Of a stretch of 64,000 nt of DNA, positions 186 through 57,100 are shown one piece after another. Both the position numbers and the translations under genes were made by a program. The stretch is from Candidatus Omnitrophota bacterium (GTDB lineage: Bacteria; Omnitrophota; Omnitrophia; Omnitrophales; Aquincolibacteriaceae), in assembly GCA_035352955.1 (NCBI GenBank), contig DAOPYQ010000002.1:233267-297266 (forward strand). Reading direction: 5' to 3'. Numbering within the stretch: position 1 is the stretch's first letter; every line of letters begins with the position of its first letter. The notes under the pieces are model-generated. The model ran no database searches and was not told the DNA's origin. It saw only the letters and a list, made by a program, of their open reading frames with translations.

Positions 186-262
186 GCAGGATGACGGGTG
201 ACGGATAACGGATGGCGGAAAAACCGGCTTGTCGTCATCCGCCATCCTCCATCCGGTATCCG
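186..262. repeat. REP-like intergenic palindrome of the GGATGRCGGATGGCGGA family
   Basis: ggatgacgggtgacggataacggatggcggaaaaaccggcttgtcgtcatccgccatcctccatccgg lies between the folC start and the purH stop. Confidence 0.6.
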
Positions 263-6644: not shown

Positions 6645-6699
6645 AGGGGTGGAATCCTAACATAAGGGTTAAGGTTTGACAATAACATCGGAAAAACAG

Positions 6700-6765
6700 G
6701 CTAACGGATGGTGGAATGGGGATGACGAAAAACCAGTTTTTACGCCATCCGCCCTCCGAAATTCT
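6700..6765. repeat. REP-like intergenic palindrome of the same family
   Basis: taacggatggtggaatggggatgacg…ttacgccatccgccctccg lies between the DUF1015 gene and csaA. Confidence 0.55.
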
Positions 6766-19508: not shown

Positions 19509-19605
19509 GATGTTTTCGCCTCTCCTTAGCGGACTTGCCCAACAGCAAGTCCTGTTTCTAACGGGGTGAATGATCTTAAAAGTTCCGCTAGAATTGACCC
19601 GGACG

Positions 19606-19795
19606 GCGGCCCGACCGTCCCTGAAGCCTCCGGAAGGGAAATCTCCTCCCGAACCCTTGGAAATAATGAAAGCTGAAAGTCAAATGCCGACTGTTTTCGT
19701 TATCGGCATCTTCCGCTCCGATATTGACCGCGTTATACCCCCCAGGGGGGGGGGAATCCGAAACGCAAAATCCTAAATCCAAAAAACTTTAATCC
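19606..19795. repeat. ~190-bp direct repeat, copy 1 (flanks the COG1373 ATPase gene); contains C6-A-G9 and other hairpins
   Basis: Near-identical to 21113..21302 (…gaaataatgaaagctgaaagtcaaatgccgactgtt..cgttatcggcatcttccgctccgatattgaccgcgttataccccccagggggggggaatccgaaacgcaaaatcctaaatcc…). Confidence 0.8.
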
Positions 19796-21112: not shown

Positions 21113-21302
21113 CGGCCCGACCGTCCCTGAAACCCACGGAAGAGAATTCTCCTCCCGAACCCTTTGAAATAATGAAAGCTGAAAGTCAAATGCCGACTGT
21201 TTCCGTTATCGGCATCTTCCGCTCCGATATTGACCGCGTTATACCCCCCAGGGGGGGGGGAATCCGAAACGCAAAATCCTAAATCCAAAAAACTTTAAAT
21301 CC
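21113..21302. repeat. ~190-bp direct repeat, copy 2
   Basis: Same sequence as 19606..19795 in the same orientation. Confidence 0.8.
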
Positions 21303-26393: not shown

Positions 26394-26650
26394 CGATATT
26401 CTCCGACTTTACGAACGACGAGCAACGGATCACGAGTAACGAGCCGCGTCACTCGTCGCTCGTGACCCGTTACTGATGCGTCAATGAGTTGCAGAAGGGA
26501 GGGAACCTTAAGTCCCCCTTGCCTTAGATTTTATTCCAAAAAGGGTTGGCAAAGCTCGTCCCAATTTCAACTTCGTTGAAATTGATAGGCCTTGGGACTA
26601 CAATGCAACCCGACCCGCAATATATCTCACTGAAAGGATTCGTATTCTAT

Positions 26651-35954: not shown

Positions 35955-36086
35955 CGTGTATCTCCTTATTGTGTGAATGATTCGTCATTCTGAGACCGTC
36001 CCGTTTTGGGACTTACGAAGAATCTCCCAAATAAGATCCTTCGACTTCGCGCCTGCGGCGCTTCGCTCAGGATGACACCGTCGGTG

Positions 36087-36443: not shown

Positions 36444-36538
36444 ATCTCGCCTCCCGTTACATCATGAGAGCTGTTGTCAGCTTAATCGCGCAACGCTCGT
36501 TGATCGTTGTGCGTTGACCGTTGCCCGTTGCGCTGCTT

Positions 36539-37039
36539 TTAGTATCCCGCCCGATTCAACGCGATATTCACGAGCCTGTCCACGTGCTTAATCTTCGGAT
36601 GTTCGCGCGGCACGTGAAAATAACTGACTCGCTGAAATTTTTTCTCAAGCGCTTTGACTTCCATAAAGAACGGCCGAAGATGTTCGGCCTTGAGCTTATA
36701 GATGCCGGAAAGTTGCCGGGCCACGAGTTCGCTATCGAGGAAATAATCCGCTTCTTCGATCCCGAGTTCGGCGGCAAGTGTCAGTCCGCGGATCACGGCC
36801 GTATATTCCGCGATATTGTTGGTCGCGTCTCCGATGGTTTCGCCGTGATCGGTGAGTTTTTGGTCCTGGGCATCGCAAACGAGAACGCCGATCGCCGCGG
36901 GGCCGGGGTTGCCGCGCGCGCCGCCGTCGGAATAAATCTTTCCCTTCTTAGCGGATAACGGATGGTGGATGGTGGATGGTGTTTGGGCTTTTTCGCCCTC
37001 CGCCTTCCGCCCTCCTTCATCCCGTTTCAGAGGTACCAT
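36539..37039 (-). CDS. rnhA: Ribonuclease HI (true start probably downstream of the annotated ATG)
   Basis: RNase H core IYSDGGARGNPGPAAIG...TNNIAEYTAVIRGL...D. The ATG-defined N-terminal ~30 codons overlap a REP-like palindromic element (36953..37018). Confidence 0.7.
   Translation of the reverse strand: MVPLKRDEGGRKAEGEKAQTPSTIHHPLSAKKGKIYSDGGARGNPGPAAIGVLVCDAQDQKLTDHGETIGDATNNIAEYTAVIRGLTLAAELGIEEADYFLDSELVARQLSGIYKLKAEHLRPFFMEVKALEKKFQRVSYFHVPREHPKIKHVDRLVNIALNRAGY
36953..37018. repeat. REP-like palindrome of the same family
   Basis: gcggataacggatggtggatggtggatggtg…cgccctccgccttccgccctcc lies between cysE and rnhA. Confidence 0.55.
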
Positions 37040-37779: not shown

Positions 37780-37860
37780 GGATGAAGGATAACGGAAGAA
37801 GGATGGAGCCTAGTTTGTCGCCATCCACCATCCGCTGCCCTCCATCCGTCTTTTCCGGTT
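37780..37860. repeat. REP-like palindrome of the same family
   Basis: ggatgaaggataacggaagaaggatggag…tcgccatccaccatccgctgccctccatccg lies between cysE and ychF. Confidence 0.55.
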
Positions 37861-38960: not shown

Positions 38961-39018
38961 GATGACTCCTTGTGATTTGAGGGGAGACTATAACAGAAAA
39001 GCAGAATAGGAACAATCA

Positions 39019-39173
39019 GGATGGAGGATGACGGATGGCGGAGGGCGTAAAAGCCAAAGCTCCATCCGCCCCAACTTTTAATTTTATTTCTGAAAAGGTA
39101 GTTGGGACGGCCCCAATTTCCGCTTCGCAAAAATTGATAGGTATTGGGACCGCCCTCCGTCATCCGACATCCG
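39019..39173. mobile_element. MITE-like element with ~22-bp terminal inverted repeats GGATGACGGATGGCGGAGGGCG, intergenic copy
   Basis: The left end ggatgacggatggcggagggcg and the right end cgccctccgtcatccgacatcc are reverse complements. An inverted copy of the whole element lies at 39842..39942. Confidence 0.6.
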
Positions 39174-39178
39174 TACTG

Positions 39179-42100
39179 TTATGCCGCCCACGCGACGACC
39201 TGCTGGTTCAGATAATCCTGAAGGACCGCGCGAAGCTCCGCGTGAACGATCAGATCGCCATCCGGCGATTCCGTCACGCCCCGTTCTTTCCCTTCGGAAA
39301 GCACGTACAGAAGCGCGAGCGAGATCAGGCCCTGCTCCTCATCCAGCCTGAGCGCTTTAACGAGAGGATGCCGTTTACGCCGCGCATTCTTTCCGTAAAG
39401 ATCGACGGCGGCACGATTCGGGAGACCAAATTTCGCGAACGCCTGTTCCATCCCGAGTTCCGTGACCGCGATCTTCCCGCCCTCGATCTGCCGGAGGATC
39501 GTTTCGCGTGCCAAAAGCGGCTCTTGCTCTTGCCGCGCAACCTTCGTCATCCTGAGCGCAGGCTTCGTCATCCTGAGCGCAGCGAAGGATCCCGTCTGAG
39601 ATTCTTCCCCCGCCGATGGCGGGGTCAGAATGACGGCCTTATTAGTTGGTGCTTCCCCGTAAAGAACGATCCGGGCGTCTTTGCGGCCTTCGGCAACCGC
39701 CGTCGCAACAATAAAGAATTCTTCCCACTGTTTTGCCGTGAGCGCGGCAAGTTCCGCACGGCTCATCAGGATCGTCCCAGCGCCGTTCAATGTTTCGATC
39801 CGGCTGCGGACCGCGAGCGCGTGACGCACAGCGCTTCGCGCTGAGGATGACGGATGACGGAGGGCGGTCCCAATACCTATCAATTTTTGCGAAGCGGAAG
39901 TTGGGGCGGATGGAGCTTTGGCTTTTACGTCCTCCGTCCTCCGTTTCCCTTCCTCCTGCTTTTCGGGTGTTGCACGGAGGGCGGGTGAAGCAGAAGCTGA
40001 GGGGTCAGAAAACTGCTTCGTGCCCGCCTCTCCGCGCGGTTGAATGGTTGTATTAATTATAATTTTTTCTCGCTTGGGTTCTTCGCCAGAGGCGAATCCG
40101 TCCACTTGCTGGTGGATTCGACTCGGGACGAATCCGCCGCGCTGCGTGGCGGAGAGTCTCGACGGGGCCGATACACGCCTCGGGTTTACGGCCGTAAACC
40201 CGAGGGCTGCTTCATTGACACCCCTAAAAGGCTGTGATAGGCTTTGGGTGGTTTCGCGGGAAAGAAGCTGTAAAGAAGATAAGCTACGGGTTGTTAAACC
40301 GCTCGGTTGAGAGATCAGCCGGGCGGTTTTTTTGTTGTCCTGCCTGCCCACCAAAACTTCAGCGCGGATTTCAGAGCGGGGCCCCGAAAAAACCGACGCC
40401 CACGCGTAAAACCCTCGGACGACGGCCCGCTCATAATCCAGGGAGTCTTTTTGGAGACGGGTCAATAGCGACTTGCCGACCTCGCCTCCCGTCGACATAA
40501 ATTCACCTTTATCGTCATCCGCCCGGCGGCTTTCCTGTGCTTCGTTTTCAAGAAGCTTGAGCCATCTCCGAAGCGGTTCAGTTTCTTGACCGGAAAATGG
40601 GGTCACCGGCTCACCGTGAACGGCTGCCCGGAAACGAACTCCCGCTTGCGCGATAAAAGACAGAACTTCCTCGGCAGCTTCCGAAGCCTGCGCCTGTTCT
40701 TTCTCGGGATAAATTCCCAGAAACTTGCGCCGCTGCGACAGCGCCTCTTCAAGGGCTTGCCGCATCGTGAAATATCGTGCCGCCATCTCCGCCTGCCTTT
40801 CGCCAAGCGTTCCCTGCCACGGGTTAAGAGCCTGAAGCGCTTTCCCGACAAGGCTCTGCGGCACGGCATCCCAGGCCCCTTTCTTCCGGATCTCAAGCGC
40901 AAGATTCTCCACATCGGCCCGAATACTCATGAATTCTTTCAATAATGTCCCCTCCGAAGACACATTGCCGGTAAGTGCTTCCTGAGAATAGATCTTTGTC
41001 AGCAGCCGGTCGGAAACGGTTTCACCTGCGGGATCCACAAGGAAGGGACGCAGGGTCGGAGTCGGCTCAAAGTGCGCGAAACCATACCCCAGCTCCCAAT
41101 CAGAAAATTCTATCCCTTGGGCAGCTATATCCCATTGGGCGCTCCTGAACTTCCATGTTGCCACACCCATCCAGGTATTCTGCAAAGCAACAAGAGCTGC
41201 CAGCGCCTTGAGCGCCGCAGCTTGATGAGGGCTCACTTCTTCGAGCGTTTCCACAAACACATCTTTTAACGAGTGGACGATATCGTCGACATCGGCGTAG
41301 ACCTTGCGCAGCCTCTCGATCAGGGATTTATTATGAAGTCCTTTATCCGCAAAATCACGCCGCAACGCCGTCTGGAAGCTCTGAAAGGATTTAAGAGCCA
41401 CCGCAAGTTCTCCGTGAGCCTTTATCTTGTTCTGGGTTTTCAAAAATTCTCCGGCGCGGATCAGATGGTTCACTCCATCGCCCAATGAAATCCTTTCGGC
41501 AGAGATTGTTTCCGCCATGCCCGCAAACGCCGGCTGGTTCATTTCCGTGAGCGTGTTCCTTACGCGCGCAACGATCGCCGCGATCTCAGGAATCGCCGCC
41601 CGCATCTCGGCGCGGCCGCCCACCTTTGCGGCCGGCCGAGAAATGCTTGAATACGGATTCAAGCGCGCTTCGGAGCGTTTGGCGGATTGGGAAGAAAGCT
41701 TCGCCTGGACGGCTTTGGCCACGGCCGCGACTGTTTTCCAGTCGCTTCGCGAAAGCTGTGCGGCGCGCAGACCCACGCCCATCATCCCGAAACTCGCTAA
41801 AGCACGTGACGCCGCGACCCAATTTTCATGCTCCAAAGCCTCAAGCACGCGGCGGAAATACGGCCGCAGCTTCATCGGAACTTGGATACTCCGGAAGAGT
41901 TCCGTGATCCGGCGGTGGTTCCGAACTGCTACGGAACTTTTTCCGGAGGCTCTCCTCAGGACCAATCCATCGTCCGTTAGCCGATAGATCCTCTGACTGA
42001 GGCTCCTCGCGGGCGTCCGGCGAGATCCCGTCAATCTTGTGATCTCGACCACGTCTTGATAAAGATTGATCCGGACATTCACTCCGTATTGCTCAAACAA

Positions 42101-45100
42101 AAACCTTTCAAAATTATTCAAAGAATCCGTGAGGGCGCGCCCGTGCTCCTGATCGTAATCGATCAACATATCCGGTATTTTCGGAGCAAACTCCGCCAGA
42201 AGAAAATGAGAAGCAAAATCCATACCGAAGATCTCGTATTTCACGAATTGTTGGAGCGCAAGCTTAAGTGTAGATATGTCGACCAGCAACCGGCCCCCCG
42301 GCTTGAGGGCCTTGACCCATTTGGAAAAAAATCTTGGAGCTTCTTTTTCGTCATTAAAGGCATAACTCAGGGACTTCGTTCCTATCATCAGGTCAAGCTG
42401 TCCTTCCCCATAATCAAGCGTGCTGAAGTCCGCCAGCAACGGATAGGCCGCCACATTCCCCGGAAGGACCGCGCGATATTTAACCCCACCTGAAGATCCT
42501 TGGAACGAACTGTCTTTCTGAAAGAATTGTTCAAAGATCAGCTTGAGCGGCTGGGAAACATGATATTCGCCCCAGTTTCTATCGGTCATATAATTACGCG
42601 CTTGGGAAGGATTCGCGCTGATCCCCCTCAGGACCTCTATCTCCGGCCGCTGATTCGAGACCACTGAGAGCTCGATCGGGCGCTTACCATATCTCCCGGC
42701 AAGCACGCCGGCAACTTCCAGAAATTGGGGCGACTCTAGGGAGCCTGCTTCATCATGTAATCCAGGTCCCATTAAAGCCACTTTTAGAGGGCCGCGTTTA
42801 GCAGTATCAAGAGGGCGCAGCAAAAGATCGTATAACCCCGGAAATCGCTGTGCCTCAGTAAAGTCACCGTATCCGGACCGTCCGTAGAATTTCGCCAGCT
42901 GCGGATTGATCGTCCGCAGATAATCCGCGTAGGGGCCCGCCGCTTGAGCTGCCTTATCCGCAGGCTCCCGAATCTCGGCTCGGACTTCCTTGGTCCGGGC
43001 ACGAGTGCGTGCAGGACTAGGGGTGTCCTGCCGCATCTCAGCACGGCCGCCCACCTTTGCGGCCGGCCGAGGAGTGCTTGAATGCAGATTCAAGCGCACC
43101 TCGGCTGGGACTTCCTTGGTCCCAGCACGAGTGCGTGCGGGACTAGGGATGTCCTGCCGAATCTCGGATCGAAGGGCGGCGATCGTTCTGACGGCTGAAT
43201 CCAGTTTGTCATAGAACTCAAGGGAGTCGGCTTCGCGGGTGATCACGAGCGGCTTGCTCAAACCGGGATGGCCGAGGATCAGCTCTCCTCTGTCCGCTGT
43301 CACGGAAGCCCCGTACATCTTGTTCAAAACCTCGTTCAGGATCTCCCGGATCCCGGCGGCGGTCCTGTCGGAAGGATTGCCGTGAAGCTGGATCGGCGCT
43401 ATCCAGAGGATCATTTTCAAAAGCTCCCGGTCGTATTGACCCGGTGTGGCATGTTCTTTTTGCCGGACCAATACATCGAATTCTTTCAAGGATTCCCGGA
43501 GCGCGGGATAAAAATACCGGTTCAGCGCCTCTCTCGCATTTTGAGATCTTCCGAACCGAACTCCGCTCAAATGCATCGCGATCCGCTCGGTCCCTCTTTC
43601 CAAAAAGATCTTCGGCTTTACATCGACCTCGTGGTCCCCATAACCGGATGCGAAAAGGATCGCGTGCTCCGTTGATTTGCGGAGACACTGGGCCGCTTTT
43701 TTCGCAAAATTGACGGCATCCTCCCCGTATTCCCCGTAGCTTTGAACGTCCAGCTCGGCTCTTAAAAGTTCGGTCCGGGCTTGATCGGCTTCTTTTTCCG
43801 CCTGATCGAGCGCGCGCCGGAAAACAACCTCCTTACGGGCGGCTTCCAGAACGGCGTCCCGATGGCTTTCAAAATACCCTTTCAAGTCCAGCATCAGATC
43901 GAGGACCAGATCTCCGTACGTGGATAAAACCTGTTCTTTAAGAGCAGCCTCTTTCGCTTTATAGATCGTTCTTTGTCCGGAACCCTGAAAAACCATCATG
44001 AAATCCGCCGCCAGCGCTGCGGCGGCGATCCTTTCCCGGATCTCTCCGGAAAAATACTTTTCAAGCGCCGGCCAGGCGACCGCAAGGTCCGGGTCTGTCT
44101 GCAGAAGTTTCGCGGTTTCATCGACCATCTCTTCATCCACCCACTTCAGCAGAACCGGCGCATCCAGACCGGCCACTTCCATTTCACGTCCTCTTGCCGC
44201 GAAACTTTTGGGGAACATTTTTTTAGCCCGGGCGATCCGTCTTCGATCTCTTTTCCATTCTTCGTTCGCGTCCCGGATCTTTTCAGGAAGGGATTGAACC
44301 GCTTTTTTGAGCTGTTTGATCAGGTCTTGGGGCACGTATTCCTTCGAGGACTTCAAGCCCCCTCTCGCTACCGAAAAAGACGCCAAAATGAACTGGTACG
44401 CGACCTTGAGCATGGGAACGGTTTCTCTCAACGCGTCCGGACCCGTCACATCCAGATCGTATTTCTGCTCTTTCATGGCCTGATAAAAAATATCGAGCTC
44501 AGCTTCGTCCCACGGCATGCCGCGTAAAAAGAAATCCATGAGCAGTTCTTTATCCGTCCCCATCTCCGTCCCCGCAGGCTCTGTTTTAGCAAGGGACAGG
44601 AATGTATCGCCGCCGGATGAGCGCAAAGTCGCGCGAGCAGGCGAGTTCACGTCCGCCTCGCTGATCGCGAGAGCCAGGGCCTCCGCGATCCATCGGCGGG
44701 TCCTGTCAGTGGAGCGGGCTTCCCGCCTGTCCGCCGGCAAGGGGCTGTTACCCGAGATAGAGTCGGGCTTCATCTCGGGTCCGGCATCCTCCTTTTGGAA
44801 GGTGAAACTCAGGGAGGCGGGATCGAACCTCATGTGCTTGAGGAAAGCGAAAACAACGGCCGGGTCGTAAAAAACGCCCGCGAGATTCGCGATCTCCGTC
44901 AGGGCTTCCGACGGTTTGAAGATATGATTGTAGGGCCGCTGAAAGGTCATCGCGTCGAACGAGTCAGCGACCGCCGTGATCTTCGCGATAAGCGGGATCT
45001 GATGGCCCGCGAGCCCTTTGGGGTAGCCCTGCCCGTTGTATTTTTCATGATGCGCGACGACATTCGCCGCGACCTCACGGAGATATTCGAACTTCTCCAT

Positions 45101-48100
45101 CAGCGGTCTCAGCACGTTAAACCCCTCTGCCGCGTGGCTCATCATCACGGGCCACTCCGCGGGATCGAGCCGCCCCGGCTTCTTCAGGATCGCGTCGGGC
45201 ACCGTGAGTTTGCCGATATCGTGGAACGCGAAGCTGTCGACCAGCGTCCGGGTGACATCAAGTCCCATAACCCCGGCCGTGGCAACGCCAAGCTCCGTCA
45301 CGCGCGCCATGTGATCGAGCGTGACTTCGTCTTTTTCCGCCATCTGTTCGAGCAGTGCGAGAAGCTCGCTCCCGACCGGCCCGTATTTCAGGACCCTCCC
45401 GATCGCCTCCTCCCCCGCCCGAAGTTCGCTCCGGTCCGCGGGAGTTCCCCAGGAGGAGCGGGAAACCTTCAGGGATATCTCGAGGGAAACTGCATAACTG
45501 CCTTGTTTTAAGATTGAAGCAGAGCTCTGAAGTCCGGCAATTTCATTCGTTCTTTTAATTCGATAGACACTTTCCGGGAATTGGTCTTTCAAAACCACTG
45601 CCCACTCGTTCCGTCCTCCAAACTCCGCTGTAAAATCATCCGTATCATCAGGAGCAATAACCAACCGCCCCTTTGGCTTCAATAAACGGAAAATGCTGGC
45701 CGCCTTCCTCTTCCCAGAATCAAAAAGATACGTTTCATCCGGATAAGGCGCCAAACAATAGACCCCCGCCACGAAAGCCGCTCCCTTTTGCGCGGCAAAA
45801 GCTTCGGAGTCCTTACCGAGGATGATCCGGACATTCCTCAAACCTTCCTGCCGGATCAATAAAACCATTTTGTTGAACAACGCCGGATCGGGTTCGATAA
45901 AAATGAACCGGGCCCCGGGATTCTCACGCACAAGCGAAAGCGAAATCCAGGATTCGCCGGGACCGATATCTACGAACAGGGGCGCCGCGGCATTACCAAA
46001 AACTTCCCGCCAGTCCGCCGTCACAGAAATGATCGGAGAAAAATCGTTTTTCGCGGTTGCTTGGCGGTCGTTTGTTTTTTCATTTTCCGGCGACGCTTTT
46101 TGCGTTTGCCGCGACTCGGAGCGGGCCTCCTGCCTGTCTGCCAACGTGTCCACGGCAGAGCTATCTCTTGTTTGTTTGCGGGCCAGTTCCTCTTCAGCGG
46201 CCCGCCGGACTTCCGTCAAAAGCGCTTCGGTCGAAATGTCTTCGGGCGTGCTTAAGAGGATCGCGGGAGCAACGCGGGCCAGGAACCGGAGGATGGCGAC
46301 ACTGCCGTAAGAATAGGTCCATTTCTTCTTGAGGTGCGTGATGTCACTAAAGCCTTCCTTGACGAAAACGCTGGTCGAGGCCTGGAAGGTGCTTGGCGTA
46401 TTTCCGTCCTCGCGCGCGGTCCGCACCAAGAGATCGGAAAAAGGAAGCATTCTCTCCAGGGTCAGCTGCGGGTACGGATCAAAGACCTCCTGCATCCCGG
46501 TAGCGTCCGTATCGAGATTGTAGAATAACGCCTGCTTCCTTGGCCTCGTGACGGAGGGATTCCCGAAAAATTTCCCGATCCATCCCCAACTGGTTTGCCC
46601 GTCAATGCCCGGCACGGACGCCGTCCGCCACAGATCAAGGCTTCCCTTGACCCAGAAGTGCCCGGCCAGGAACCCCGTCGCGCGAAAAGCCTGATTAAAA
46701 TTTTTCATGGTGATCCAGAAAAGGGAATCTCCAAGCACCCCGGATATTTTTTCCCAGTCTTTTAACCGCGCCGGATCTCCGACGGGAGGAAATTCACCGG
46801 GCATTTTAAAGAATGGCTTTGCCGGATCCGGGATCGCGCCATCCGGACCCGCCGAAGGGCTTTCGTCATGGTGCTCGTCCATAAAAAGCTGGATATTGCC
46901 GGAAGTCGGCATCTCCCCCCGGGCCGCCGCTTCCATGGCATATTTAGCGGAACTTCCGTGATCCCCCGCAAAATAAAAACTGACCGTCCCGCCGCCGGGT
47001 CTTTTGAAACGGATCACCACGTCCCGCGCGGGGACCACGGGATTTTCCCCCGCCTGGACGATGTCCTGCCAGGTCCCCAGGATCAGGGCCGGAAAATCGT
47101 TGGATTGCCAAACGCCCTTTCCGTCGGCCTGCCGCACAAAATGATAATGTGCCCGGTCGAATTCATCGAGGAAGGGGGGTTGTCCTTCTACCGAAGGTGC
47201 GTGAAGTTTCTCCGCCGGATAATACATCATGCCTTCCGCCAACCGATCGATCCGCATCTCAGCACGGCGGCTTTCATTAGAAGCCGGCTGAGAAGTGCTT
47301 GAATATTGATTCAAGCGCATCTCGGCTGGGGCTTCCTTGGTCCCAGCACGAGTGCGTGCAGGACTATGGATGTCCTGCCGCACCTCGGCGCGGGGAAGGT
47401 TTTGGTCCATGACGGCGATCACGTCTGTCACTATCCGCCGGAATTGCTCGTACGTAGGCGCGGCATTGGCAATACGCTGCCCATCCACCAGCTGTTGACC
47501 ACGGGCAGAGCTGTAAAACGACGCCGCGGTCGCGTCGGACACCGCATGACCCGTGACCCGGTTTGAAACAAGAGTGAGTACATCCTGTAAAACATGGCAT
47601 AACTCATGCCCCGAAGATTTCAGGAATAATCCGGTTAACCAGATACTTCCTCCCACAACGATCGTCGCGCCCGCCGAATACAGGAACAAGCCGGCATCGA
47701 TATGAGATCCTCTGTTCGCCAAGTCGTGAAGAACCATGCTCGCAAAGAGCGCCGGATAAACATGAATCCGGTCAAAGTAGCGGATCACTTTCACAGAGCC
47801 CGCCTCATCGAAATGGGTGGCGGTCTCTCCTCCGTTATATTGGAATATAAGCTTCCCCAACGAAAACACCAGGCTCCCAAGCCCCCATAGCGTGTGGAGA
47901 TAACGTTTGTGTTTGAGATCTTTAAAAATTTCCAACGGAGTGCGATAAAAGAACCGGTAAAGTTCATTGAATATGACTGCCGTCCAACTCCCCGGGGCTC
48001 GGACCACGGGAACGCCGTACCGGGCTGCCAGGATTTTGACAAAACGCTCGTAATCGGCCGCGTCCCTGAGCTGGCCGGGAACGGAGAACATCGTTGATTC

Positions 48101-51100
48101 CATCCAGGCCGAAGCCAAAACATCGTTCAATAACCGCTTTAAGGGCGGCCGTAATCGCTCATCCGCCGCAACGGCCGCGGTGGAACTGTCATCGATTTTC
48201 CGTGCCGTCCCGGTCCGTAATTCGTTTCGTCCGAATTTTTCGAGCCGCTCCCCGGTGAATTTCTCGAGATCCGCAAAACCTTCCCCCATCCTCCGGACAG
48301 CCTCCGAAAAAACCTCCCGGTTCCACGCCCGGTCCTGACTTTCAATGAAGACCTCGTAAGGGAAATAGAACATCTGCTCCATCTTTGTCATCGGATGTTC
48401 TTCGGAATTATTTTCCACCAGACGCCCGGCATCCCGGTATTTTGCGTAGCGCGGGCCCGCAAAGTCCTCCCGGATCGCCTTGACCAATTCCTGATACTGG
48501 GCCAGCACCGCCCCGACCCGGTCAAGATCGCCGCGGATATCTTTCGAAAGGTCCCGGGCCAAAAGACCTTTCTTTAAAAGAACATACATTTCGAGTTTGA
48601 GGGCGGCCAGCGAGTTCCTGATGTTATGGTCAAACCATTCTCCCCAGGTCACCCGGTCGCCGTCATAACCCTCCCCGAAGACCGAAAAACCGTTCTCAAG
48701 TTCTGTCACGATCCCGATCAGGTCCTCTAGATACTGGACCTTCTGGCGGAGTCTATAGATGTCCGTTCCCTTTTCCTCGCCCGCCGCGGCCTTGCCTCCG
48801 AAAGAATCCGCCCTTATCGGAGCCTCCGGATCGGGCCATGCGATCTCCCGGGGAACCTGGATCACGGAAGGAATCGTTCCATAAGACGCCACCGTCTTCG
48901 CGCCGAACAAAAGATCCTCATATCCGGGAACGATCCGGTCGTCGAACGCTTTTTCCGCCGAAGTATAAAAAAGCGACGCGCGGTCAAGGCGAACCTTCTG
49001 CGGCTCATGCGCCTCGCGGTTCGTGCGGCTTACGGCATCCGCGAGAATGGCCGCTTCTTCGGGGGAAAGCGGCGCCACCACATGCATCGCCGTAACGTGA
49101 TAACGGGTCCGCGGCCTGAAATTCGAAAGACCTTTGTGCCTTTCGAGAAGTCCTTCCACCATCGCGTCCATCGCGGCAAGATCCGAGTCCCGCGCCGGGT
49201 CGAACTCAAAAACAAGAAGCCGGCCTCCCTTGAAAAAAGCAAGCTTTCCGAGGTAACCTTCGGCCGACTTCATGGTCTCAGCCGCTTCGCGAAAAACCGA
49301 CGGGTCCTTTTCCAGTTCCGGGTTCCGGTCTGCGGGTCCCGCAACCAACGTGATGTGCCGGACCTCCGAAGGAACCAGCCTTACCTTGGCCGCGAGCTTG
49401 GGATCCGCGCGGTCGAGCTTGCGAAAAAGTTTCAAAAGCATTCCGTCCATATACGCGTTCGCTTCGGGATCGTTCCCGAGCCTGTGGGCAAACACAACAT
49501 GACGCGCCGGCTCGATCGGCTCTCCCTTGACACCCTCCGCCTTCATCGCGGCAATATCGTCCTCTTCGAGCCTCGCGAACTGTTTGCGGTATTCCTGAAC
49601 TCGCTGAACGGTACCGGGCACCTTGTGGACACTAAAGTGCTGCTTCGCCGCAGGTTGATCCGCCCGCATCTCAGCACGGCGGCCCCCCTCTGCCGCCGGC
49701 TGAGAAGTCCTCGGATATCGATCCGAAGGATCCTCGGCCCTCGGGATTCCCACAACGATGCGGTACAACTGCTCATTGTGCCGGTACAGTCCCGCGACCC
49801 GGCCAAGCGATTCCAGCGACCATCCTCGCTTTCGGGCCAGGGCCGTCAAGGAAGCAATCTCGTAATCGGTATACTTGGGAGATTCATCGCCGAGCATCAA
49901 CAGGGTCCCGGGATGCGAGCGCTTCAGAACATTCCCGACTAGCTCATCGATCTCTGGCTTGGAGGACAGGTAACGCGCCTGTTCCGGATGCTGCATGATC
50001 GAGGGCAATACATTGAGCATGATGACCAGATCAAAATTCTCACCAGCGGGGATCCCCCCGAAATCGGTCTTCCTCCCGCGGTCCATCGCGTCAAGCCGGT
50101 CCTTCAGGACCGAAGCCCAGGCCGACACTTTCGGCACTTTGAACTGCCGGTCAAGAGCCTCCCGGAGCGCCGCCACCCGCTCAACGTATTTCTCGTCGTG
50201 CACATCGCTGGGCTGCAGCAGGGTCACATCCACCCCGGCAGTTTCTAAGGCAAAACTGATATCAAAGAAATCGGACGGTCCCACCTCGAGGACTTTCTGC
50301 CCTGCCTTGATCCTGCCGCTCGCGAAAAGTTCCTGCGCAAACCGGACGGCACCTTCCTGAACCCGCCGCGCTTCCTCTTGCTCGAAGGAATACCAGCGCA
50401 CCACCCAGCTCAGAACATCCAGCACACCGGTCCGGTCAAACGCTGTCAGAAGGTCCCGGACAGGAATGCTCTTTCCCTGAGCCTTCGCGGGCGCCGTTGC
50501 TTTCACGGATGTTTTCCCCGCCCGTGATTCGGCGCGGACGTCCGGCGCAAGCCGGACCTTGAAGATCTTCACCGTCTGCGTGCCGGCGGGACGGCCGAAC
50601 GCGCTGACCGAAATGACCTCCTGGCGGATCTTTCTGACCGAAAGACCCTTTTCCTGTTTGAAGAGAGGCTCCAGGGTATTTCCAATTCCCATGACGTAGT
50701 AGGCGCCGCCGGGTTTGAGACGAACGGACAATTCGGACAGGGTTTTGGAAAACGTCCTGCCTCCGGGGTCTTCCGTCCTGAGATCCGCTTCGTTTCGGTC
50801 TTCGGAAGGAGCCGGGGCGTTATCAATAATGGCATCGTAGGTATCGCGGACATTCTCAAACCCGTCGCTTTCCCAGACCCGCACACGGTCCTGAAGGTTG
50901 TGCGCGTACACATTGGCCAGGCTGTTTTGAACTTCCAGCTTACCAATGTCCACGCCGTCGAGCTCGATACCCGGTACCGTTTTCCCGAGAACCACAAGCT
51001 CCGGACCTGCCCCCGACCCCTTAACCAGGATCTTTTGACCCGGACGGATCTCCGGAAGGACCGCGGCGAGCAGGACGGCAACATAGGGATTTTCGGGAGA

Positions 51101-54100
51101 ATACACATTGGCAAAAACGAGGAACCGGTAGTCGTTTAATGTCTGCTCCCGGAATTGAATGCGGTGGGCACTCGAAACATTGATCCGCTCGCCGGTCTTC
51201 TTTCCCGGAAAAACCACGGGCGAAAGCAGGTCCCGGCGGTCCCGCCAGAAGGAGAGCCACTCTTCTCCCGGATCAAATATGGATTTTCGCCCCTCAAAAA
51301 CCGTAGGGTCCAATTCCATCAAGCTGAGGTTCCCGCGTCTTGTTTTCTCAACCGCCAGGCCAAGAGGGTCGCCCTTATACGCAAGGAGCCAGGAACGGAA
51401 AACTTCGCCGTCTGAAAACCAATCGGCAAACCGGATCACCCGGTCAAGCGATGCGGACGGCTCGATCGGAAAAACGCTATAGCCCTCGCCAAGCGAAAGA
51501 CCGGCGGGTCCCTCGGGAGATATCCCGAGCGCCTTCAGGTAAAAATAAAGCGGCGAATTTTCCGAGACTTTCAAACCCTCCGCCCGCTTCCCTTCCCTCG
51601 GCGCCGCCCGCATCTCCGCGCGAAGATCGTCCTTTTTGCTCCCGGAATCAGCGTCTGCGGCTGAGCCCCTTCCCGAGATAAGATTTTCCCTCATGTACCA
51701 AGCCCCGTAGAGCTTCATATTTTCGGAAGGCGCCGGCACGGAAAACGCAACGGGCTTTTCCAGTGACCGGAGTGCGGCGGCAATAGCCTCGCGGGTTTCC
51801 CGATTGAAGTCCCCCGTTTTCGCGCGCAGATCCGCAAGAGCAGCCCGGATCCTTTCCGAACAACTCCGGTAAACGGAAGAGTTTCCGAGCGCGCGTCCCG
51901 CCTCAACCGCGATCCTCGATGCGCTGATGAAAACCGAGATCTTCACATAAATGTTCTCGCTCTCCTCTCCGAATCCGGTCAGCCCTTGCAGAAGATCTTC
52001 CAAAGCTGAGGGAGAAAGGACGGGCGCTACGCGCTCCATCCCCGCAAGGGCTTTCTTTCTCAGATCGCTTTCGCCGATCCCCTTGAAATTGGAAATAACC
52101 ATCCACTGGGCCGTAAAAAACATGGCCCCAAAAACCGCTAACCCGGCCAAAACCATGCCGTTTTCGGCAAACCATGCGTTCATCGGAGATTTTGCGGCAA
52201 ATTCGGGACGAAGCGCGAAAAGAACTCCGACCATCATCGCCGCTTGAGCTACCGCAATGCTTTGAACGAGCCCGACGAGCGCGATCCTTTTCAGGATCTT
52301 TATCAGCCGGCGGTCTCGCCATGTCTCGGCGGTTCCTTTACTGCCATCCTTGAGCACTTTCAACCAGTAGACCGCCTCGACCGAAGCGATCCATTCCGTT
52401 CTCACCTGCTGCATCAGCTGTGAAGATCCGGCCGGTGCGGCGTCCTCAATCAACGCATCGAGGACCCTTCCGAGATTTTCTTCATAAATAATGGTGAGCC
52501 CTTTAGGAAAGAGACGGGCGAGACGCGAATCGCTCGGCAATCGGGAGAGATCAGCTCCCGCGGCCAACATCTCCCGGAGCGCAAAAAGCCGGGCGATCAC
52601 TTCAAGCTCCAGAGAAGTCGCCGGACGTTTAATGTCTTTTCGTAGGATCGCAAGCTGTTCGCGTGTCCGGGACGCCCATTCTTCATCTACATTCGTGCCC
52701 CGTTCCACGATCCGGACCGCCCCAGAACCTTGGGACAGCTTCGCGCCTGCACCCACGGGAGCGGCGTCAGAAACGGTAACAGAAGGCTCGTGAAGAGCCT
52801 TTTGCGGAACGGTTTTCTCCAAACCCTCGACCGCCAGAGAAATTTCCTTCCCCAACGCGAAGCCAACGATCCCGAGTCGGGACCGGGTCTCGAGAAGCCC
52901 TCTCCGGAGCATCCGGACTTTCTCTTCGCTCACATGGATGACCGGAAGCTCCCCGGGATCTTTGGAGACCGAAACGGCGAGCCGGGAAGCACTTAAAAAT
53001 GCCTGCATTTTCAGGGAGAGATCTTTCTGGTCCTCCGCGAACCGGATCAGACGGTCCGTCATATCCGCGCGAACTTCGGACGCCAGATCCGGCGCGATCT
53101 TCGCAAGCTCCACAAGTGCGTTTTTTCTCAAAACGGCTTCCGCGATCCCGCCGGTGCAAGCGAGGATCAGGAAATTTAAACCGGAGAAAAGCCCCACGAA
53201 TCCGGACACCGCGGTAAAAAGAACCCGGCTCTCCGCGAACCCTCCCTGCGCCGCGGAATTCGCGCCGCCGAAGTAAAAAGACCCCAAAGCCCCGGCCAAA
53301 ACCGCCGCAGCCTGAACGATCCCGGCGATCGAAAGTCTCCGCAAAAGTTTTTCGGTGCGCCGCTGTTTTTCCGTCCGGGCAAAGCCTTTTCTGCCGTCCA
53401 CCAGGACCTTGAACCAGTAGCCGGCTTTCACCGTAGCGCTCAAGGCCGCTTTTTGATCCGGCGAAAGCCCGGCATCCCCGGCCCTTTCGACTTCCCCGAT
53501 CAACGCTTCCAGGATCCTTTCCAGATTCCCGGAATAAATAAGCAGGAGCCCTTTCGGGAAAAGGCGGCCAAGCCGAGAATCAGCCGGAAGTCCGGAAAGA
53601 TCCGCGCCCTCGGCCATCATGTCGCGAAGCGCGAAAAGCCGGGAGAGAACTTCAAACTCTCGCGGGAGCGCGGAACGCCTGATGTCTTTTTGAAGCGTCA
53701 CATACTGTTCGCGTGTCCGGGCCTCCCATTCTTCATCCGCGGTCCAGACACGAGTGCGTGCAGGGCTAAGGATGTCCTGCCGCAATTCAGCCCGGACAGA
53801 TCTGGGTTCCTTTTCATATCCCCTTGCGGCCTCGCGGGCGGTCGAAAGAACGGCAATGCTGCCAAGATCGAGAGCTTCGTTCATGGGCCGGATCTTTGAC
53901 CGGTCTTCCCCAGAGAAGGTGCTGCTCACCCCTCCCACGTACGTCGCGAACTTCGGGGAAGAACCCGTTGCTCCGGTGGAAGGATACATTTTTTCCAAAG
54001 TCCTGAGCATCAGCCGCGCGGCCAGGATAAGACGATCGCGAAGTTCCTCCTTGGAGGAACCTTTTTCGAAAGAAGCCGCGAGGGTGTGTTCCCCCGAGAG

Positions 54101-57100
54101 ATCGCCCTGGGGTTCGAAATCAAAGATCATATGAACCGCCTGCTTGGGATCATGCCCTCTAAAGCCGAGGTCTTGATGCCGGTAGGTCCGTTTGAGACCG
54201 TGGTGAGGCGTTACGACGATCGTGATCTCATGCTCAAGAAAATAGAGGCTTGCGAAAACGTTCACGTCCTTCTGCCCGCTGTGTTGAAAGGCCCGCATGG
54301 CTGCGACCTCGCCGGAAAGACGCTGCGCAAAAGTTTCCAGAGACGCTTCATTCCACTCGCCGGAGCGGAGCGTCAAGGCTTTCCGGTCCCCTTGCTCATC
54401 GAGAAATTCTTCCGCGATCTTTCCCTGCGATATTTCCGTAGCGGTTTCCGTCTGCGGGGCAAGCGCCTTGGGGGCGACAGCCGGGGTCTTTTTTTCCGGA
54501 AAATATTTCTCGAGGAAAAGGGCTATCCGACGGAACAGCCCCGGAGCTTTGGCTAAAAAAACTTCTTTGGGGCCGGGGAGAGCCTGCTCCGCGTTTCTCG
54601 ATAGGATCGCGCTAATTGAACTAATATCCGCTTCGACCCTGTTCGTCCGGGAGCGCGTCATGAGCCACGGACCTTCCTGGATCTCACGGAGTATGTTGTC
54701 AACTTTCGCCTGAAGGACTACGGCGTCGGCTTCGAGCGACGCGTCAGGCTCGCAGAACGTCCCCTGCGGGGTTTCCGTCGCAAGTTCGAGCGCACGAAGA
54801 TAAAGGTTGGTCGCGCGGAAAAGCGCGGGGTCTTCCGACTTGAGGAGTTGTCTCTGCGCCAATAAATTCCGCGCCATTGATTCCGCAAAACGTTCCCGGT
54901 TCGCCCCCAGGATCACCGTATTGACGATAAGATCCGCGGTCAATGTTCCGACCGCATACTGCTGGTTCGCATTAAGCCGTCCGTCCGGATCCAGATCGTA
55001 AATGGGCCCGTGAATGCCAAGCTCCCTCAACAGCCGTTCCCCGGCCTGCCGAACGAGCGCGTGGTCGAACGAATAAGAAAGGCCGAGCTGGAGCGCGTTC
55101 CGCGGGATAAGGATTATTTCCCCCATCATCGAGACCGCGACGTCATTCGCCAAAGCAAAAGAGAGGTTTTCCAGGGGAGAAATCGCTTTTGCTTCCTGGC
55201 GTTCGTAATGGGCCCAATAATCATTCCGGAACTTCGCGAAATCTTCTCCGGTCTCGAGGATCCGGACCCGGGGCGTCACGTCCAGATGCGGGAAGATCTT
55301 TTGCGCCTCCTCCATCGTTCGCGCCACCCAGGCTTCCGAAAGAACGTCCCCCTCCGCCCCATGTTGGCGCATCTCGGCTGGGACTTCCTTGGTCCCAGCA
55401 CGAGTGAGTGCAGGACTATGGAGGTCCTGCCGCAGCTCGGCACGTACGGGAAGCAAAGAACGGGTTTCCGCGCCGGCCTGGCCGACAGGCTGGCCGTCCC
55501 CTTTCTTTTTGAGTGTGACGACTTTTTTCCGGAGCTCGAGGGGGGAGGTGTAAAGCGGAACGGTCCCGTCCAGTTTTCCGGAGGCTTCCCCGGCGGCTTT
55601 TTGAACGATCTCCGAAGGATCTTTTTGCCCCCCGGCAAGAGTTGTCAGAATATTTTTCCAGGCCTCTTCTTGCCCGGTGCCAAGACGCCCGGCGATCTCC
55701 CCGATCGCAAAAAAGGCCGCCCTCCGGATAGCGTAATGATCATGCCTTGCGGCTTTCATTAATACAGGGAGCGATTTTGTGTCGCCGGCCCGGCCCAAGG
55801 CCTCGGCGGCTTCCTTACGGGCCGGAAGGAAATCATCTTTCCGGACCGTTTCGCGGAGCGCGGCAAGTACAACCTCCCGCATTTCCGCTCCCAGATGCCC
55901 GGTGCGCAGGAACGCGCCCAACGCGATCGCCGCCGCCGGCCTCAAAGCCATATCTTCCACATCATTCTTTTTCAGTAGATCGATCAGAAACGGGATCAGC
56001 TCGACTTGCTCTTTTGTGCCGGCGCCAAGGATGGCGAGGATCTTGCCGGTATTCATGATCGGAATAACCTTGAGCCTGGCCCTTGCCTCAAGCCATCGGG
56101 TCACGAGACGATAGGCGGCATAGGCAGCCAGCGCAGCGCCGGCGACGTAGTAGAGGTCGCTCCCCGTCCATTCGCCGCGGATCAATCGGTCGCCCAGGAA
56201 CGCGACGCCCGGGACCGCATCCGCCCGCAGCTCGGCTGGGACTTCCTTGGTCCCAGCACGAGTGAGTGCAGGACTATGGATGTCCCGCCGCAGCTCGGCG
56301 CGCATCGGCTTCCGGTCAAATTTCCGGCGCAGCACGGTAACATTGTCGGGCGCGGTCTTGCCTCCCGCGTACTCGACATATTGTTCCGCTGAAGTTCCGT
56401 ACGAAACAAACCCCCGGATCCGCTCATCGCGAAACTCCCGGGACTTCCCCGCGTGGAATCCATAGATCCCGTCCGAAGCCAGAAGGACCTCGACCGCGCT
56501 TGCGTCGCTCAGGTCGATCGTCTGGATATCGACTACCGGGATCAGGATCTTCCGGAAAGCCCGGTCCCCGAAAGAACGGCCCGTGATATGGGATTTCCCG
56601 GTCACGGGATCCGTCAAATACCACCCGCCGTTTTTTTGTTCCGCAAACGTATAATCGCGTCCTTCCAGGAGCCCGGCTTTTGCGGCCACCCCCCGGTAAG
56701 CATCCCGCTGTTTCGGGTCCGAAAAATGCTGTTCCTCGACCGGAACTTCCTTTCCGTCCTTGAGAAGATATGCCGGAGAATCTCCGATCAGCATAAGGTG
56801 CAGCGTCTTCCGGTCCGACGGCACGAATACGCAGGTGAGGGTCGAGCCCGACTTGAATCCTTTCATCATGGAATAAAGGATTTTGAACGTCCTCTCAAAC
56901 GCCGCGCGGATATCGCCTCGATTCAGGAGAAGCGCCCACTTGAAGACGGGCGTCAAAAGAACGCTCAGAAATCTCGAAACGGCCTTTCCGCCGTGCCCGT
57001 CCATGACCGCCATCATCTGCCCTTCAACCTTCATCCATCCCGGGACCCATACTCTGAGTTTTCGATCCACAAAACTGTCTTCCTGGGGCAGCGCAAGTTC

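Follow-up and report, generated by a model that had tools for sequence, protein, structure and literature searches.

Introduction

The Correia elements (CREE) of Neisseria are TA-duplicating MITEs with fixed terminal inverted repeats (TIRs) of 26 bp. The palindrome-associated elements (PATEs) derived from IS200/IS605 have subterminal hairpins and neither TIRs nor target-site duplications (TSD). The STRR repeats of cyanobacteria are heptanucleotide tandem-repeat elements. The Rickettsia palindromic elements (RPE) were reportedly described by Ogata et al. in 2000. To our knowledge, no REPs have been described in the phylum Omnitrophota. The REP, BIME, and REPIN sequences of Enterobacteria and Pseudomonas are short imperfect palindromes that are present in high copy number and are mostly extragenic (PMC2817692, PMC3116915). 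The GGACCGG x4 family of Geobacter metallireducens has 49 copies that are both intergenic and intragenic (PMC2700814). RPE and other MITEs within genes (see also PMC2759123 and PMC5896051) are palindromic repeats that are read in frame, where they add a peptide and leave the gene unbroken. The linkers, repeats, and cleavage points of the giant genes of Omnitrophota are not treated in two published surveys of those genes, one of which states that the cleavage points are unknown.

In this work, the whole 64-kb stretch of DNA (the window) was analysed with emphasis on a repeat at the 3' end of a giant ORF. The initial annotation had described this repeat as a MITE-like element with GGATGACGG... 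TIRs. The part of that claim that describes a multi-copy, hairpin-forming, non-autonomous repeat holds, and the part that describes a single MITE is not supported, as the arms and the core are independent. The module described below and the gene architecture point to an Omnitrophota affiliation of the window. The locus is probably a nested mosaic of three unrelated hairpin repeat families, REP/BIME-like repeats of gene junctions, one of which has been turned into a protein linker in the manner of RPE.

Anatomy of the composite repeat

The coordinates of the features identified in the window are shown in Table 1.

Table 1. Repeat copies, their parts, and the coding features at the locus (positions in the window).
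Feature	Position	Strand	Details
Copy 1, composite repeat	39019-39173		Spacer between ychF and giant ORF
Copy 1, left heptamer arm (left 'TIR' of the initial annotation)	39019..39047	+	GGATGGA GGATGAC GGATGGC GGAGGGC G
Copy 1, loop (TAAAAGCCAAAG) and displaced right-arm unit (CTCCATCCG)	39048..39068	+	
Copy 1, full ~85-nt module	39065..39152	+	Covariance model R1, 95.1 bits, E = 1e-20
Copy 1, right heptamer arm	39151..39173	+	CGCCCTC CGTCATC CGACATC C
Copy 2, reverse complement of copy 1	39842-39956		Within giant ORF
Copy 2, right heptamer arm (reverse complement)	39845..39866	-	Translated ...ALRHPSSS
Copy 2, truncated module	39865..39921	-	R1, 40.9 bits, E = 1e-7; translated APSAPTSASQKLIGIGT
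Copy 2, loop and diverged left heptamer arm	39908..39956	-	86% identical to copy 1
Third module copy	26512..26600	+	R1, 70.7 bits, E = 8e-15; without GGATGAC arms
Stand-alone heptamer hairpin	189..254		10 nt past stop codon of ORF 264..1832(-)
Stand-alone heptamer hairpin	6699..6760		
Stand-alone heptamer hairpin	36953..37022		21 nt past stop codon of hexapeptide-repeat gene
Stand-alone heptamer hairpin	37780..37850		16 nt past ychF stop codon
Family iii palindromic element, ends CGTCATCCTGAGCG ... GTCAGAATGACG	39527..39650	+	Encloses 21-nt duplication; z = -3.0
Intergenic family iii copy	35990..36085	-	2 nt past stop codon of TauE-like gene
Giant ORF	39179..63793	-	8204 aa
213-codon stretch (codons 7800-8012), copy 2 inside	39758..40396	-	No codon-usage signature, no in-frame stop
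C-terminal domain of giant ORF	39182..39835	-	Homologous to free-standing 195-aa ORF P0001 of related contig L122

Copy 1 is antisense to both genes that flank it, and 5 nt lie between its right arm and the giant ORF stop codon (39179-39181). Its inverted arms are 22-31 nt long, with a complementarity of 91% for 39026-39047 / 39151-39172 and of 81% for 39011-39041 / 39150-39180, and they form the longest inverted repeat of the window. Copy 1 folds as a single long hairpin (z = -5.0 and -5.5 against shuffles, with 0 of 200 shuffles being equal). The presence of an element with inverted arms, as claimed by the initial annotation, is confirmed. The loop and displaced-unit segment of copy 1 is common to the two local composite copies only.

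Copy 2 aligns to copy 1 over 63 nt at 97% and 64 nt at 86% identity with one internal deletion of 42 nt, and its in-frame translation within the giant ORF is ...KAKAPSAPTSASQKLIGIGTALRHPSSS... Both the alignment and the translation agree with the earlier claim that copy 2 is the reverse complement of copy 1 and is read in frame at the 3' end of the giant ORF. Box B of its module is intact and box A is gone via the 42-nt deletion, which is in frame and lies between the direct repeats CCCCAAC and CCCCAAT. The in-frame TGA of copy 1 (GGA TGA CGG) corresponds to GGG AAA CGG in copy 2. The folding of copy 2 is weak (z = -1.4), with most of the folding strength lost. The inverted copies are spaced by 672 nt and bracket 221 codons, where about 220 had been given before. 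Two composites are present within the window, ~670 bp apart. A 22-mer of the repeat has 5 matches within 3 mismatches compared to 0 in shuffles, and a 27-nt core has 2 matches compared to 0. No target-site duplication or flanking direct repeat was found at either composite copy.

The source NCBI MAG contig and an independent JGI metagenome contig (L002), which both span the two copies, carry an identical locus, which is therefore not an assembly artefact. The comparison of the locus rests on these two contigs; coverage by a Logan contig is limited to the left part of copy 1 (up to 39075), and 7 further similar places were reported by the sequence lookup. With the loop segment of the composite as query, the metagenome scan gave 3 matches, all by chance and in unrelated genes, and it also missed the JGI contig, a known positive. 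The scan of viral sequences for the junction of module and arm returned 0 matches. Copy 2 is most likely a local inverted duplicate of the module and heptamer-hairpin composite.

The two-hairpin module

The ~85-nt module (family i) consists of two boxes. Box A is a hairpin (CCCCAAC...GTTGGG) with a stem that varies in sequence between copies while its complementarity is kept. Box B consists of GCCCCAAT, followed by a small hairpin, the bulge TTGATAGGT, and ATTGGGAC. The small hairpin is covarying, and the unpaired TGATAGGT between it and ATTGGGAC, where the 10-nt bulge lies, is almost invariant. In the family alignment, 92.7% of the structure cells are paired, and both-sided changes are found in 274 cells, whereas shuffles give 92 and slid controls 14-62. 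The box B stem is kept in diverged copies by compensatory changes such as TCCTGAT/ATCAGGA. The 32 C.A mismatches in the stems become G.U pairs if the opposite strand is read.

The covariance model identified 180 module copies in 695 kb of seeded loci, and more than 150 copies in other genomes have no arms. Among the matches listed, an exact 20-mer of the module is present at 118 or more loci in at least 20 genome assemblies. At least 92 of these loci carry the label Omnitrophota or Omnitrophica, and there are 2 chance matches, the number expected for a 20-mer. A tandem array of 5 x 85 nt was identified in one contig (L092) and mixed mosaic arrays in five others (L021, L054, L072, L086, and L033). 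Approximately three quarters of the module copies lie outside ORFs of at least 90 aa. Their orientation is random with respect to genes (26:26) and does not follow the local GC skew (57:45, p = 0.28). The 286 ORFs situated up to 1.2 kb from module copies include no recurrent transposase, and neither a RAYT gene nor TnpA or TnpB was seen among the neighbouring ORFs. In the Rfam scan of the whole window at the gathering threshold, only nhaA-I was found (19601-19656) and nothing at the element, and the permissive scan of 38800-40300 returned only noise. The module sequence was not found in any paper of the literature library that was searched.

The module is palindromic, of high copy number, mainly extragenic, and organised in mosaic or tandem clusters, as are REP-type repeats. 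The likeness to REP, BIME, and REPIN sequences extends to the frequent position just 3' of stop codons within operons, the mosaics and tandem clusters, the non-autonomous state, and the conservation of structure above sequence. The module differs in combining two unlike hairpins with a conserved unpaired bulge of 10 nt, and in that its 20-mer is common to ~20 species-level genomes among the matches listed, whereas REPs are usually species-specific. The module also has no fixed unpaired GTAG tetranucleotide; GGTAG is found in ~57% of the box A 3' arms, where it is base-paired and covarying (column pair 16-41: UA 44, CG 31).

The module and its composites share with Correia elements a size of ~100-150 bp, a frequent flanking TA, the formation of promoters at the ends of some copies, and a location between co-transcribed genes. 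However, the module family has no terminal inverted repeats, and its flanking dinucleotide covaries with internal bases. TA lies directly 3' of ~59% of the module copies and could be a TA target duplication; the 3' dinucleotide is assigned to the stem because it covaries with the internal columns 49-50. The module resembles PATEs in that its hairpins are subterminal, TIRs and TSD are absent, and the 2-3 nt that lie 5' of the foot of hairpin B pair with the bases of the 3' end, which can be compared to the pairing of guide and cleavage site. In contrast to PATEs, it shows no strand bias against GC skew and has no TnpA or TnpB nearby, and an IS200/IS605-type PATE was rejected on the absence of both lagging-strand bias and these genes. 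An integron attC site was also rejected, as the copies have random orientation and are scattered among housekeeping genes; the box A arms match attC RYYYAAC/GTTRRRY only partially. CRISPR-like and attC-like readings of the tandem arrays were rejected because the units are identical, including the would-be spacer, and because their orientation is not uniform.

The heptamer-repeat hairpins and the third palindromic element

The sequences that had been described as TIRs belong to a heptamer-repeat hairpin, (GGATGRC)n, as its two arms; hairpins of this type constitute family ii. The hairpin also occurs alone just 3' of stop codons in at least four other spacers of the window. The four short hairpins that had been noted before are among these and have the common heptamer unit. 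There are 9 heptamer arrays in the window compared to 0.69 in shuffles. Heptamer hairpins with quite different units are also present in this genome and across the phylum, which indicates slippage-built structures and not an end recognised by a transposase. The hairpins, probably built by slippage, sit 2-21 nt 3' of stop codons, and one of them encloses the module of copy 1. Period-7 arrays within the giant ORF were found only at copy 2. Heptamer arrays or modules acting as other linkers of the giant ORF were looked for, and no significant model match was found elsewhere in the ORF.

The likeness to the heptanucleotide repeats of other bacteria lies in the arrays of 3-5 units of 7 nt between or within genes and in the several unit types per genome. 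The difference is that the arrays here are paired: two complementary arms fold into a long hairpin just 3' of stop codons, and one pair encloses another repeat.

The 21-nt tandem duplication reported between the two copies was recovered by TRF (39535-39583, period 21, 2.3 copies, 89% matches) and is translated ALRMTKPALRMTK. It is part of a third, separate palindromic element (family iii) with the ends CGTCATYCTGA. This element is antisense to the giant ORF and adds 41 aa in frame, which are missing from P0001; it would have been absorbed in frame into the C-terminal domain. The inverse motif GCGCTGAGGATGACG, also reported between the copies, was located at 39838-39852.

The 3' end of the giant ORF

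Codons 7800-8012 are the longest and lowest-scoring (least coding-like) stretch of the 8204-codon ORF. This stretch contains 0 stop codons in frame, whereas the two remaining sense frames have 10 and 7 and the three antisense frames have 9, 4, and 5; P(0 stops) is from 6e-4 to 6e-3 under simple null models. The C-terminal domain that follows has a single homologue, P0001, which was found on a syntenic contig (L122) with ychF downstream. The 195-aa domain has no match in Pfam or PDB. A search with codons 7392-7808, the final proper module of the giant ORF, gave no homologues at E <= 1e-5. In the last ~400 codons of the giant ORF, a stop-free, non-coding-looking stretch that partly consists of repeats precedes a small gene, which stands alone in a relative.

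At the position of copy 2, L122 has a stop codon together with hairpin and heptamer sequence that is unrelated. Between the homologous flanks of the window and L122, the segment is replaced and not added, and copy 2 is no clean insertion. The unfused state is represented by this one related metagenome contig of 1973 nt and could stem from a frameshift error or a secondary split. The covariance-model search of L122 returned no significant module; a module-like resemblance in its spacer is visible by eye only and is unproven.

The comparison suggests that the 213-codon stretch is a former intergenic spacer that is now read through, with copy 2 at the point where a 195-aa gene meets the former end of the giant ORF, near codon 7800. 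The location of copy 2 in a non-coding-looking stretch is consistent with a linker position. The whole 640-nt junction spacer would have been purged of in-frame stop codons, whereby the composite would be translated as a linker and the 195-aa gene would now be the C-terminus of the giant ORF. The direction appears to be fusion rather than split, and translation of the read-through linker is predicted.

The locus resembles RPE in that the 41-aa insert of family iii is missing from the homologue and copy 2 is read in frame. It differs in that copy 2 lies not within a domain but in a long linker connecting two ORFs, and in that three unrelated repeat families are present.

Discussion

The module is a high-copy, orientation-neutral, non-autonomous repeat that occurs across the phylum and appears to act like the REP/BIME-type palindromic repeats; it may have spread in trans or by recombination or template switching, and some copies have probably been taken over as promoters. 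Four other readings of the locus were weighed. Under the first, the module would mostly have a cis-regulatory or RNA function, for instance as a promoter, terminator, or 5' UTR structure, rather than being a selfish or structural repeat, and regulation would account for its location next to ychF and within the ORF. The covarying stems, the almost invariant bulge, and the C.A mismatches that read as G.U on the other strand are in line with this, and the module is kept upstream of a suhB-like gene in four species (the third copy of the window and the same position in three others), where it is associated with TTGAAA-17 nt-TACAAT in the window and TTGAAA-17 nt-TA(C/G)AAT across the four. In addition, all 5 intergenic copies with TAnAAT behind them have a co-oriented downstream gene. 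However, this promoter-like subset is small, and its cases are not independent because they are partly orthologous. A general role as promoter or 5' UTR was rejected as there is no overall orientation bias against flanking genes. The tandem arrays of identical units, the antisense position of copy 1 to both neighbours, and the lack of an Rfam family also argue against a mainly regulatory element, as do the contig breaks at the repeat, which indicate many near-identical copies. We regard that reading as unlikely. A genuine TIR-type MITE, where a transposase recognises the GGATGACGG... ends and has moved a ~155-bp unit with the short hairpins as internally deleted relics, would explain the arms, loop, and core common to both copies, the length of the inverted arms, and the single long hairpin of copy 1. 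It is quite improbable in view of the missing flanking direct repeats, the arms that are variable strings of a 7-nt unit with no fixed end sequence, and the similar hairpins made by other unit types in this genome and across the phylum. At four or more sites of the window the arms stand without a core, and at 26512-26600 the core stands without arms; a core framed by arms is found only in the two adjacent local copies. There is no transposase within ~10 kb and none recurs near other copies. When 144 family copies were compared with mismatched flank pairs, the complementarity of their own flanks was not higher (p = 0.14), a result on which an insertion preference of the module for hairpins was rejected as well.

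The initial annotation had also proposed that the two copies could mediate inversion or deletion, by which recombination would flip or remove the last 221 codons and alter the C-terminus of the giant protein. The inverted repeats (63 nt at 97% identity, 672 nt apart) would permit this, and a simulated inversion does not interrupt the giant ORF anywhere in the segment. The antisense frame that is open is codon-aligned, and it is expected by chance (P ~0.10) because TTA, CTA, and TCA make up only 1.0% of the codons; 35% of the giant ORF lies in antisense-open runs of equal length. The alternative C-terminus is an arginine-rich antisense read, the equivalent frame of L122 is broken, and gene calling placed no recombinase nearby. 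The source MAG contig and L002, each of which spans the two copies, share one arrangement. The switch is thus very improbable, and that earlier proposal was abandoned. The heptamer arrays at the junction might otherwise be a phase-variable frame toggle, with one 7-nt unit coupling or uncoupling the 195-aa domain and the giant ORF. Removal of a single CGTAGTG unit from L122 eliminates the stop codon and fuses both ORFs in frame, and the gain or loss of one GGATGAC unit in the window truncates the giant ORF 17-70 codons later; heptanucleotide repeats are generally known as a phase-variation device (e.g., PMC13001214). But the 2.4 perfect units are too few for frequent slippage, length variation is absent from the assemblies compared, and the basis is a single two-species comparison. 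We give the toggle little credence.

The reading of the locus as a nested mosaic of junction repeats with one linker is therefore preferred. A wider proposal, to which we attach low confidence, is that junction hairpin repeats help Omnitrophota to build and remodel their giant multi-enzyme ORFs and that the undescribed, structurally constrained, phylum-wide module has a dedicated binding protein or mobilising enzyme. Under this proposal, repeat-rich spacers would lose their in-frame stops and heptamer arrays would slip by one unit (7 nt, +1 frame), whereby neighbouring genes would be stitched onto or released from the giant ORF. The locus would be a recent case, where a 195-aa gene was captured via a 213-codon spacer that is still non-coding in look.

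The findings in this work define a high-copy, structurally constrained repeat family that is common to many Omnitrophota genomes and has no Rfam match. Contigs of fragmented MAGs often end in the module, and it therefore probably helps to break assemblies in the phylum. A few module copies resemble adopted promoters. The locus is a concrete case of giant-ORF extension, and it calls for caution in annotation, as the domain maps and length records of giant proteins may include translated spacers.

The two inverted copies and their heptamer arms

The initial annotation described one MITE-like element with terminal inverted repeats (TIRs), present as an intergenic copy and as an inverted copy in the giant ORF. 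Both copies were recovered. The inverted arms of copy 1 (39019-39173) measure 22-31 nt; no longer inverted repeat occurs in the window, and this copy folds far more strongly than its shuffles (z = -5.0 and -5.5). Copy 2 (39842-39956) is the reverse complement of copy 1 (97% over 63 nt and 86% over 64 nt) with a single internal deletion of 42 nt, and is translated in frame within the giant ORF (39179..63793(-); 8204 aa inside the window). Contig DAONFQ010000006.1 (GCA_035403665.1), where the giant ORF is annotated with a length of 10,513 aa, is identical to the window, and a JGI metagenome contig covering both copies is 100% identical.

The supposed TIRs are the arms of heptamer-repeat hairpins (GGATGAC, GGATGGC, GGAGGGC and so on). 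The arm unit type is shared with stand-alone hairpins elsewhere in the window, as had been proposed; these are present at about 189, 6699, 36953 and 37780 and have loops of 9-18 nt. Arrays of GGATGAC-type heptamers occur nine times in the window compared with 0.69 times in shuffles. Heptamer hairpins of other unit types and like structure are found in this genome, at many Omnitrophota loci and in L122, a short related metagenome contig. Period 7 seems, from these sequences, to be a general property of Omnitrophota junction hairpins. In Geobacter metallireducens, dispersed heptanucleotide arrays have been reported at both intergenic and intragenic positions (PMC2700814).

The giant ORF heads a co-directional gene string that continues with ychF, a hexapeptide-repeat gene, an RNase H-like gene and a TauE-like gene. 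Each spacer of this string contains one hairpin repeat that starts 2-21 nt past the stop codon. The hairpin behind the giant ORF encloses a module of about 85 nt.

Coordinates of repeat features in the window and at related loci (L-numbered)
Feature	Position	Remarks
Module copy	39065-39152	95 bits (covariance model); inside heptamer hairpin (copy 1)
Module copy	26512-26600	71 bits (covariance model); without GGATGAC arms
Truncated module copy	39865-39921	41 bits (covariance model); in copy 2
Head-to-tail arrays, up to 5 identical 85-nt modules	L092:33-375; also L021, L054, L072, L086	Mixed arrays: differing box A stems and box B variants (GCCCCAATCTCAGCTTCGCTTCGATTGATTGGAATTGGGAC; GCCCCATCCCGCC..GGCGGGATGATAGGTATTGGGAC)
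Module upstream of suhB-like gene, same place, four species	window 26512-26660; L017:1561-1720; L030:7500-7679; L059:468-620	
7-nt-unit hairpins/arrays, diverse units	L044:4128-4204; L088:1366-1448; L025:4417-4568; L062:3823-3859	
7-nt-unit hairpins/arrays, diverse units	window 26410-26470; 36484-36535	Other unit types, like structure
7-nt-unit hairpins/arrays, diverse units	window 19755-19784; 21261-21290	
Third element, second copy	35990-36085	Spacer
Repeat of about 75 nt	42974-43133; 47321-47354; 55373-55406; 56231-56264; 58493-58526	- strand

The module, an uncatalogued repeat family of a familiar type

The module was defined from alignments of its copies. Its core 20-mer AAATTGATAGGTATTGGGAC matched at least 118 loci in at least 20 species-level assemblies. 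Among the matches listed, 92 loci carry an Omnitrophota or Omnitrophica label and 24, named "uncultured bacterium", carry none; two are chance matches in coding genes, about as expected for a 20-mer. Judged by these matches, the phylum-wide unit is the core module and not the arms. The covariance model identified 180 copies in 695 kb of 20-mer loci (among the matches listed) and three in the window. The exact 20-mer is missing from 50 of the 150 aligned copies, some of which keep the box B stem by compensatory changes.

Box A is a hairpin with a T-rich loop and a stem that varies among copies yet stays complementary (CCCCAAC/GTTGGGG, TCCTTGTC/GACAAGGA, TCCCGAC/GTCGGGA and others). Box B consists of GCCCCAAT, a small covarying hairpin, an unpaired TTGATAGGT and ATTGGGAC, in that order. 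Across 77 copies, 92.7% of cells are paired, and both sides changed in 274 cells compared with 92 after shuffling and 14-62 with the partners slid.

The module works like REP/BIME-type repeats but does not exhibit their hallmark GTAG and has no known RAYT. A single TIR-bounded MITE is improbable, since the module passes neither the TIR nor the TSD test and the copy at 26512 has no arms. Family-wide, the module flanks are not complementary. TA directly follows 59% of copies and covaries with internal positions 49-50; it would therefore be an extension of the box B stem rather than a target duplication. No recurrent transposase was found among the 286 ORFs neighbouring module copies. Where copies lie in frame, their behaviour resembles that of Rickettsia palindromic elements. 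The initial finding is therefore real and has been partly reinterpreted, with the module forming a new repeat family of a type already known.

Module orientation shows no bias relative to neighbouring ORFs (26:26) or GC skew (57:45). The module has no Rfam match, and its sequence was not found in the literature searched. The sole Rfam match in the window is an nhaA-I riboswitch at 19601-19656 (-) (53.9 bits; gathering score 37). Tandem and mixed arrays exist, and many contigs of one fragmented MAG terminate inside the module. In several genomes (flanks of L012, L077, L098 and L118) the module lies within a different palindromic repeat (…CGTCAT.GCTCAG.TCGCCCCAGCGAGGCGATCTTC.CTCGCGCG…/…CGACTTCACTCGGC…), so repeat-family nesting is not unique to the window. 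The viral-collection contig L126 (IMGVR_UViG_3300025584_000449, 179.9 kb) has two module 20-mers (7380-7399 and 7623-7642); it could derive from an Omnitrophota phage or from cellular DNA misclassified as viral.

In four species the module precedes a suhB-like gene at the same place, where TTGAAA, 17 nt and TA(C/G)AAT are followed by the start codon about 50 nt further on. Conservation is higher in this module than in its surroundings, and it is therefore probably an adopted promoter.

The C-terminus of the giant ORF

The last 195 aa of the giant ORF have a single homologue among 5.8 billion proteins, P0001, a free-standing 195-aa ORF of L122 (58% identity). The giant protein itself was not recovered from that collection, and codons 7392-7808, its last proper module, have no homologue at E <= 1e-5. 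The orphan parts are 40370-41620 (-), corresponding to these codons, and 39182-39766 (-), corresponding to the 195-aa domain. L122 has an upstream ORF, P0001, a heptamer-hairpin spacer and ychF, in that order, with the upstream ORF and P0001 in different reading frames. Between homologous flanks, the place of window 39841-39993 (copy 2) is taken in L122 by unrelated hairpin and (CGTTGCG)n sequence, about 200 nt long, in which the upstream ORF's stop codon lies.

By codon-usage score, the longest stretch of the giant ORF that shows no coding signature, and also the lowest-scoring one, is formed by codons 7800-8012 (window 40396-39758; minimum -0.15, ORF mean 0.27), and the score recovers in the 195-aa domain. 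Over this stretch the other two sense frames contain 10 and 7 stops and the three antisense frames 9, 4 and 5, whereas the frame of the giant ORF contains none (P 6e-4 to 6e-3). In copy 2's frame, the single left-arm TGA of copy 1 corresponds to GGG AAA CGG in copy 2, and the length of the box A deletion, 42 nt, keeps the frame. The left half of copy 2 (86%) is more diverged than the right half (97%), and copy 2 as a whole folds weakly (z = -1.4). The non-coding-like stretch also contains a perfect 28-nt palindrome (40178-40205) and a 15-bp hairpin with a T-run behind it (+ strand, 40296-40329). Positions 40050-40075 form an AT-rich patch.

The 21-nt tandem duplication (39535-39583) and the inverse motif are both present; the duplication belongs to a separate third palindromic element, with ends CGTCATCCTGAGCG ... 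GTCAGAATGACG and a second copy elsewhere in the window. Its in-ORF copy still folds well (z = -3.0) and coincides with a 41-aa insert that P0001 does not have.

A repeat of about 75 nt that carries three small hairpins is present in six in-frame copies in the giant ORF, and its translation reads R(A/S)E(L/M)RQDIHSPARTRAGTKEVPAE(L/M)R. R[AS]E[LMIV]R-type motifs occur at 22 sites along 39179-63793, several of them at enzyme-like module boundaries, and RAELRA lies near both ends of the 195-aa domain in P0001. These motifs and repeats could be module boundaries or processing sites; the cleavage points of giant proteins are unknown according to one giant-gene paper.

Inversion, frame slippage and read-through

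The inverted copies had been suggested as able to mediate inversion, which would switch the end of the giant ORF. We consider this very improbable. The ORF remains open after simulated inversion between the 63-nt arms solely because the codon-aligned antisense frame is open, which is expected (P ~0.10) with TTA, CTA and TCA at 1.0% of codons; 35% of the giant ORF lies in antisense-open runs of equal or greater length. Both assemblies that cover both copies (NCBI MAG contig, JGI contig) exhibit one orientation, and the genes called in the vicinity include no recombinase. Antisense ORFs as long as 1069 aa occur in the codon-aligned frame inside the giant gene (60146-63355 (+) and others); they are explained by the rarity of the same codons (85/8204) and are no sign of genes.

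One-unit slips in heptamer arrays might couple or uncouple the 195-aa domain. In L122 the upstream ORF's stop codon lies inside the (CGTTGCG)n array (1030-1065), and deletion of a single unit CGTAGTG removes it, joining both ORFs in one frame. Adding or losing one GGATGAC unit in the window truncates the giant ORF 17-70 codons later. This exercise shows, on sequence alone, that single slips can act in either direction, but a toggle stays an idea because there are only 2.4 units and no length variation was observed.

We take codons 7800-8012 as a repeat-bearing junction spacer that was read through. A spacer with its usual repeats would have opened to read-through, and the downstream 195-aa gene would thereby have joined the giant ORF; one short related contig, L122, suggests this direction. 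Published Omnitrophota giant-gene surveys do not mention linkers of this type. The locus is a well-documented case in which a repeat-bearing spacer would act as the linker of a giant gene.
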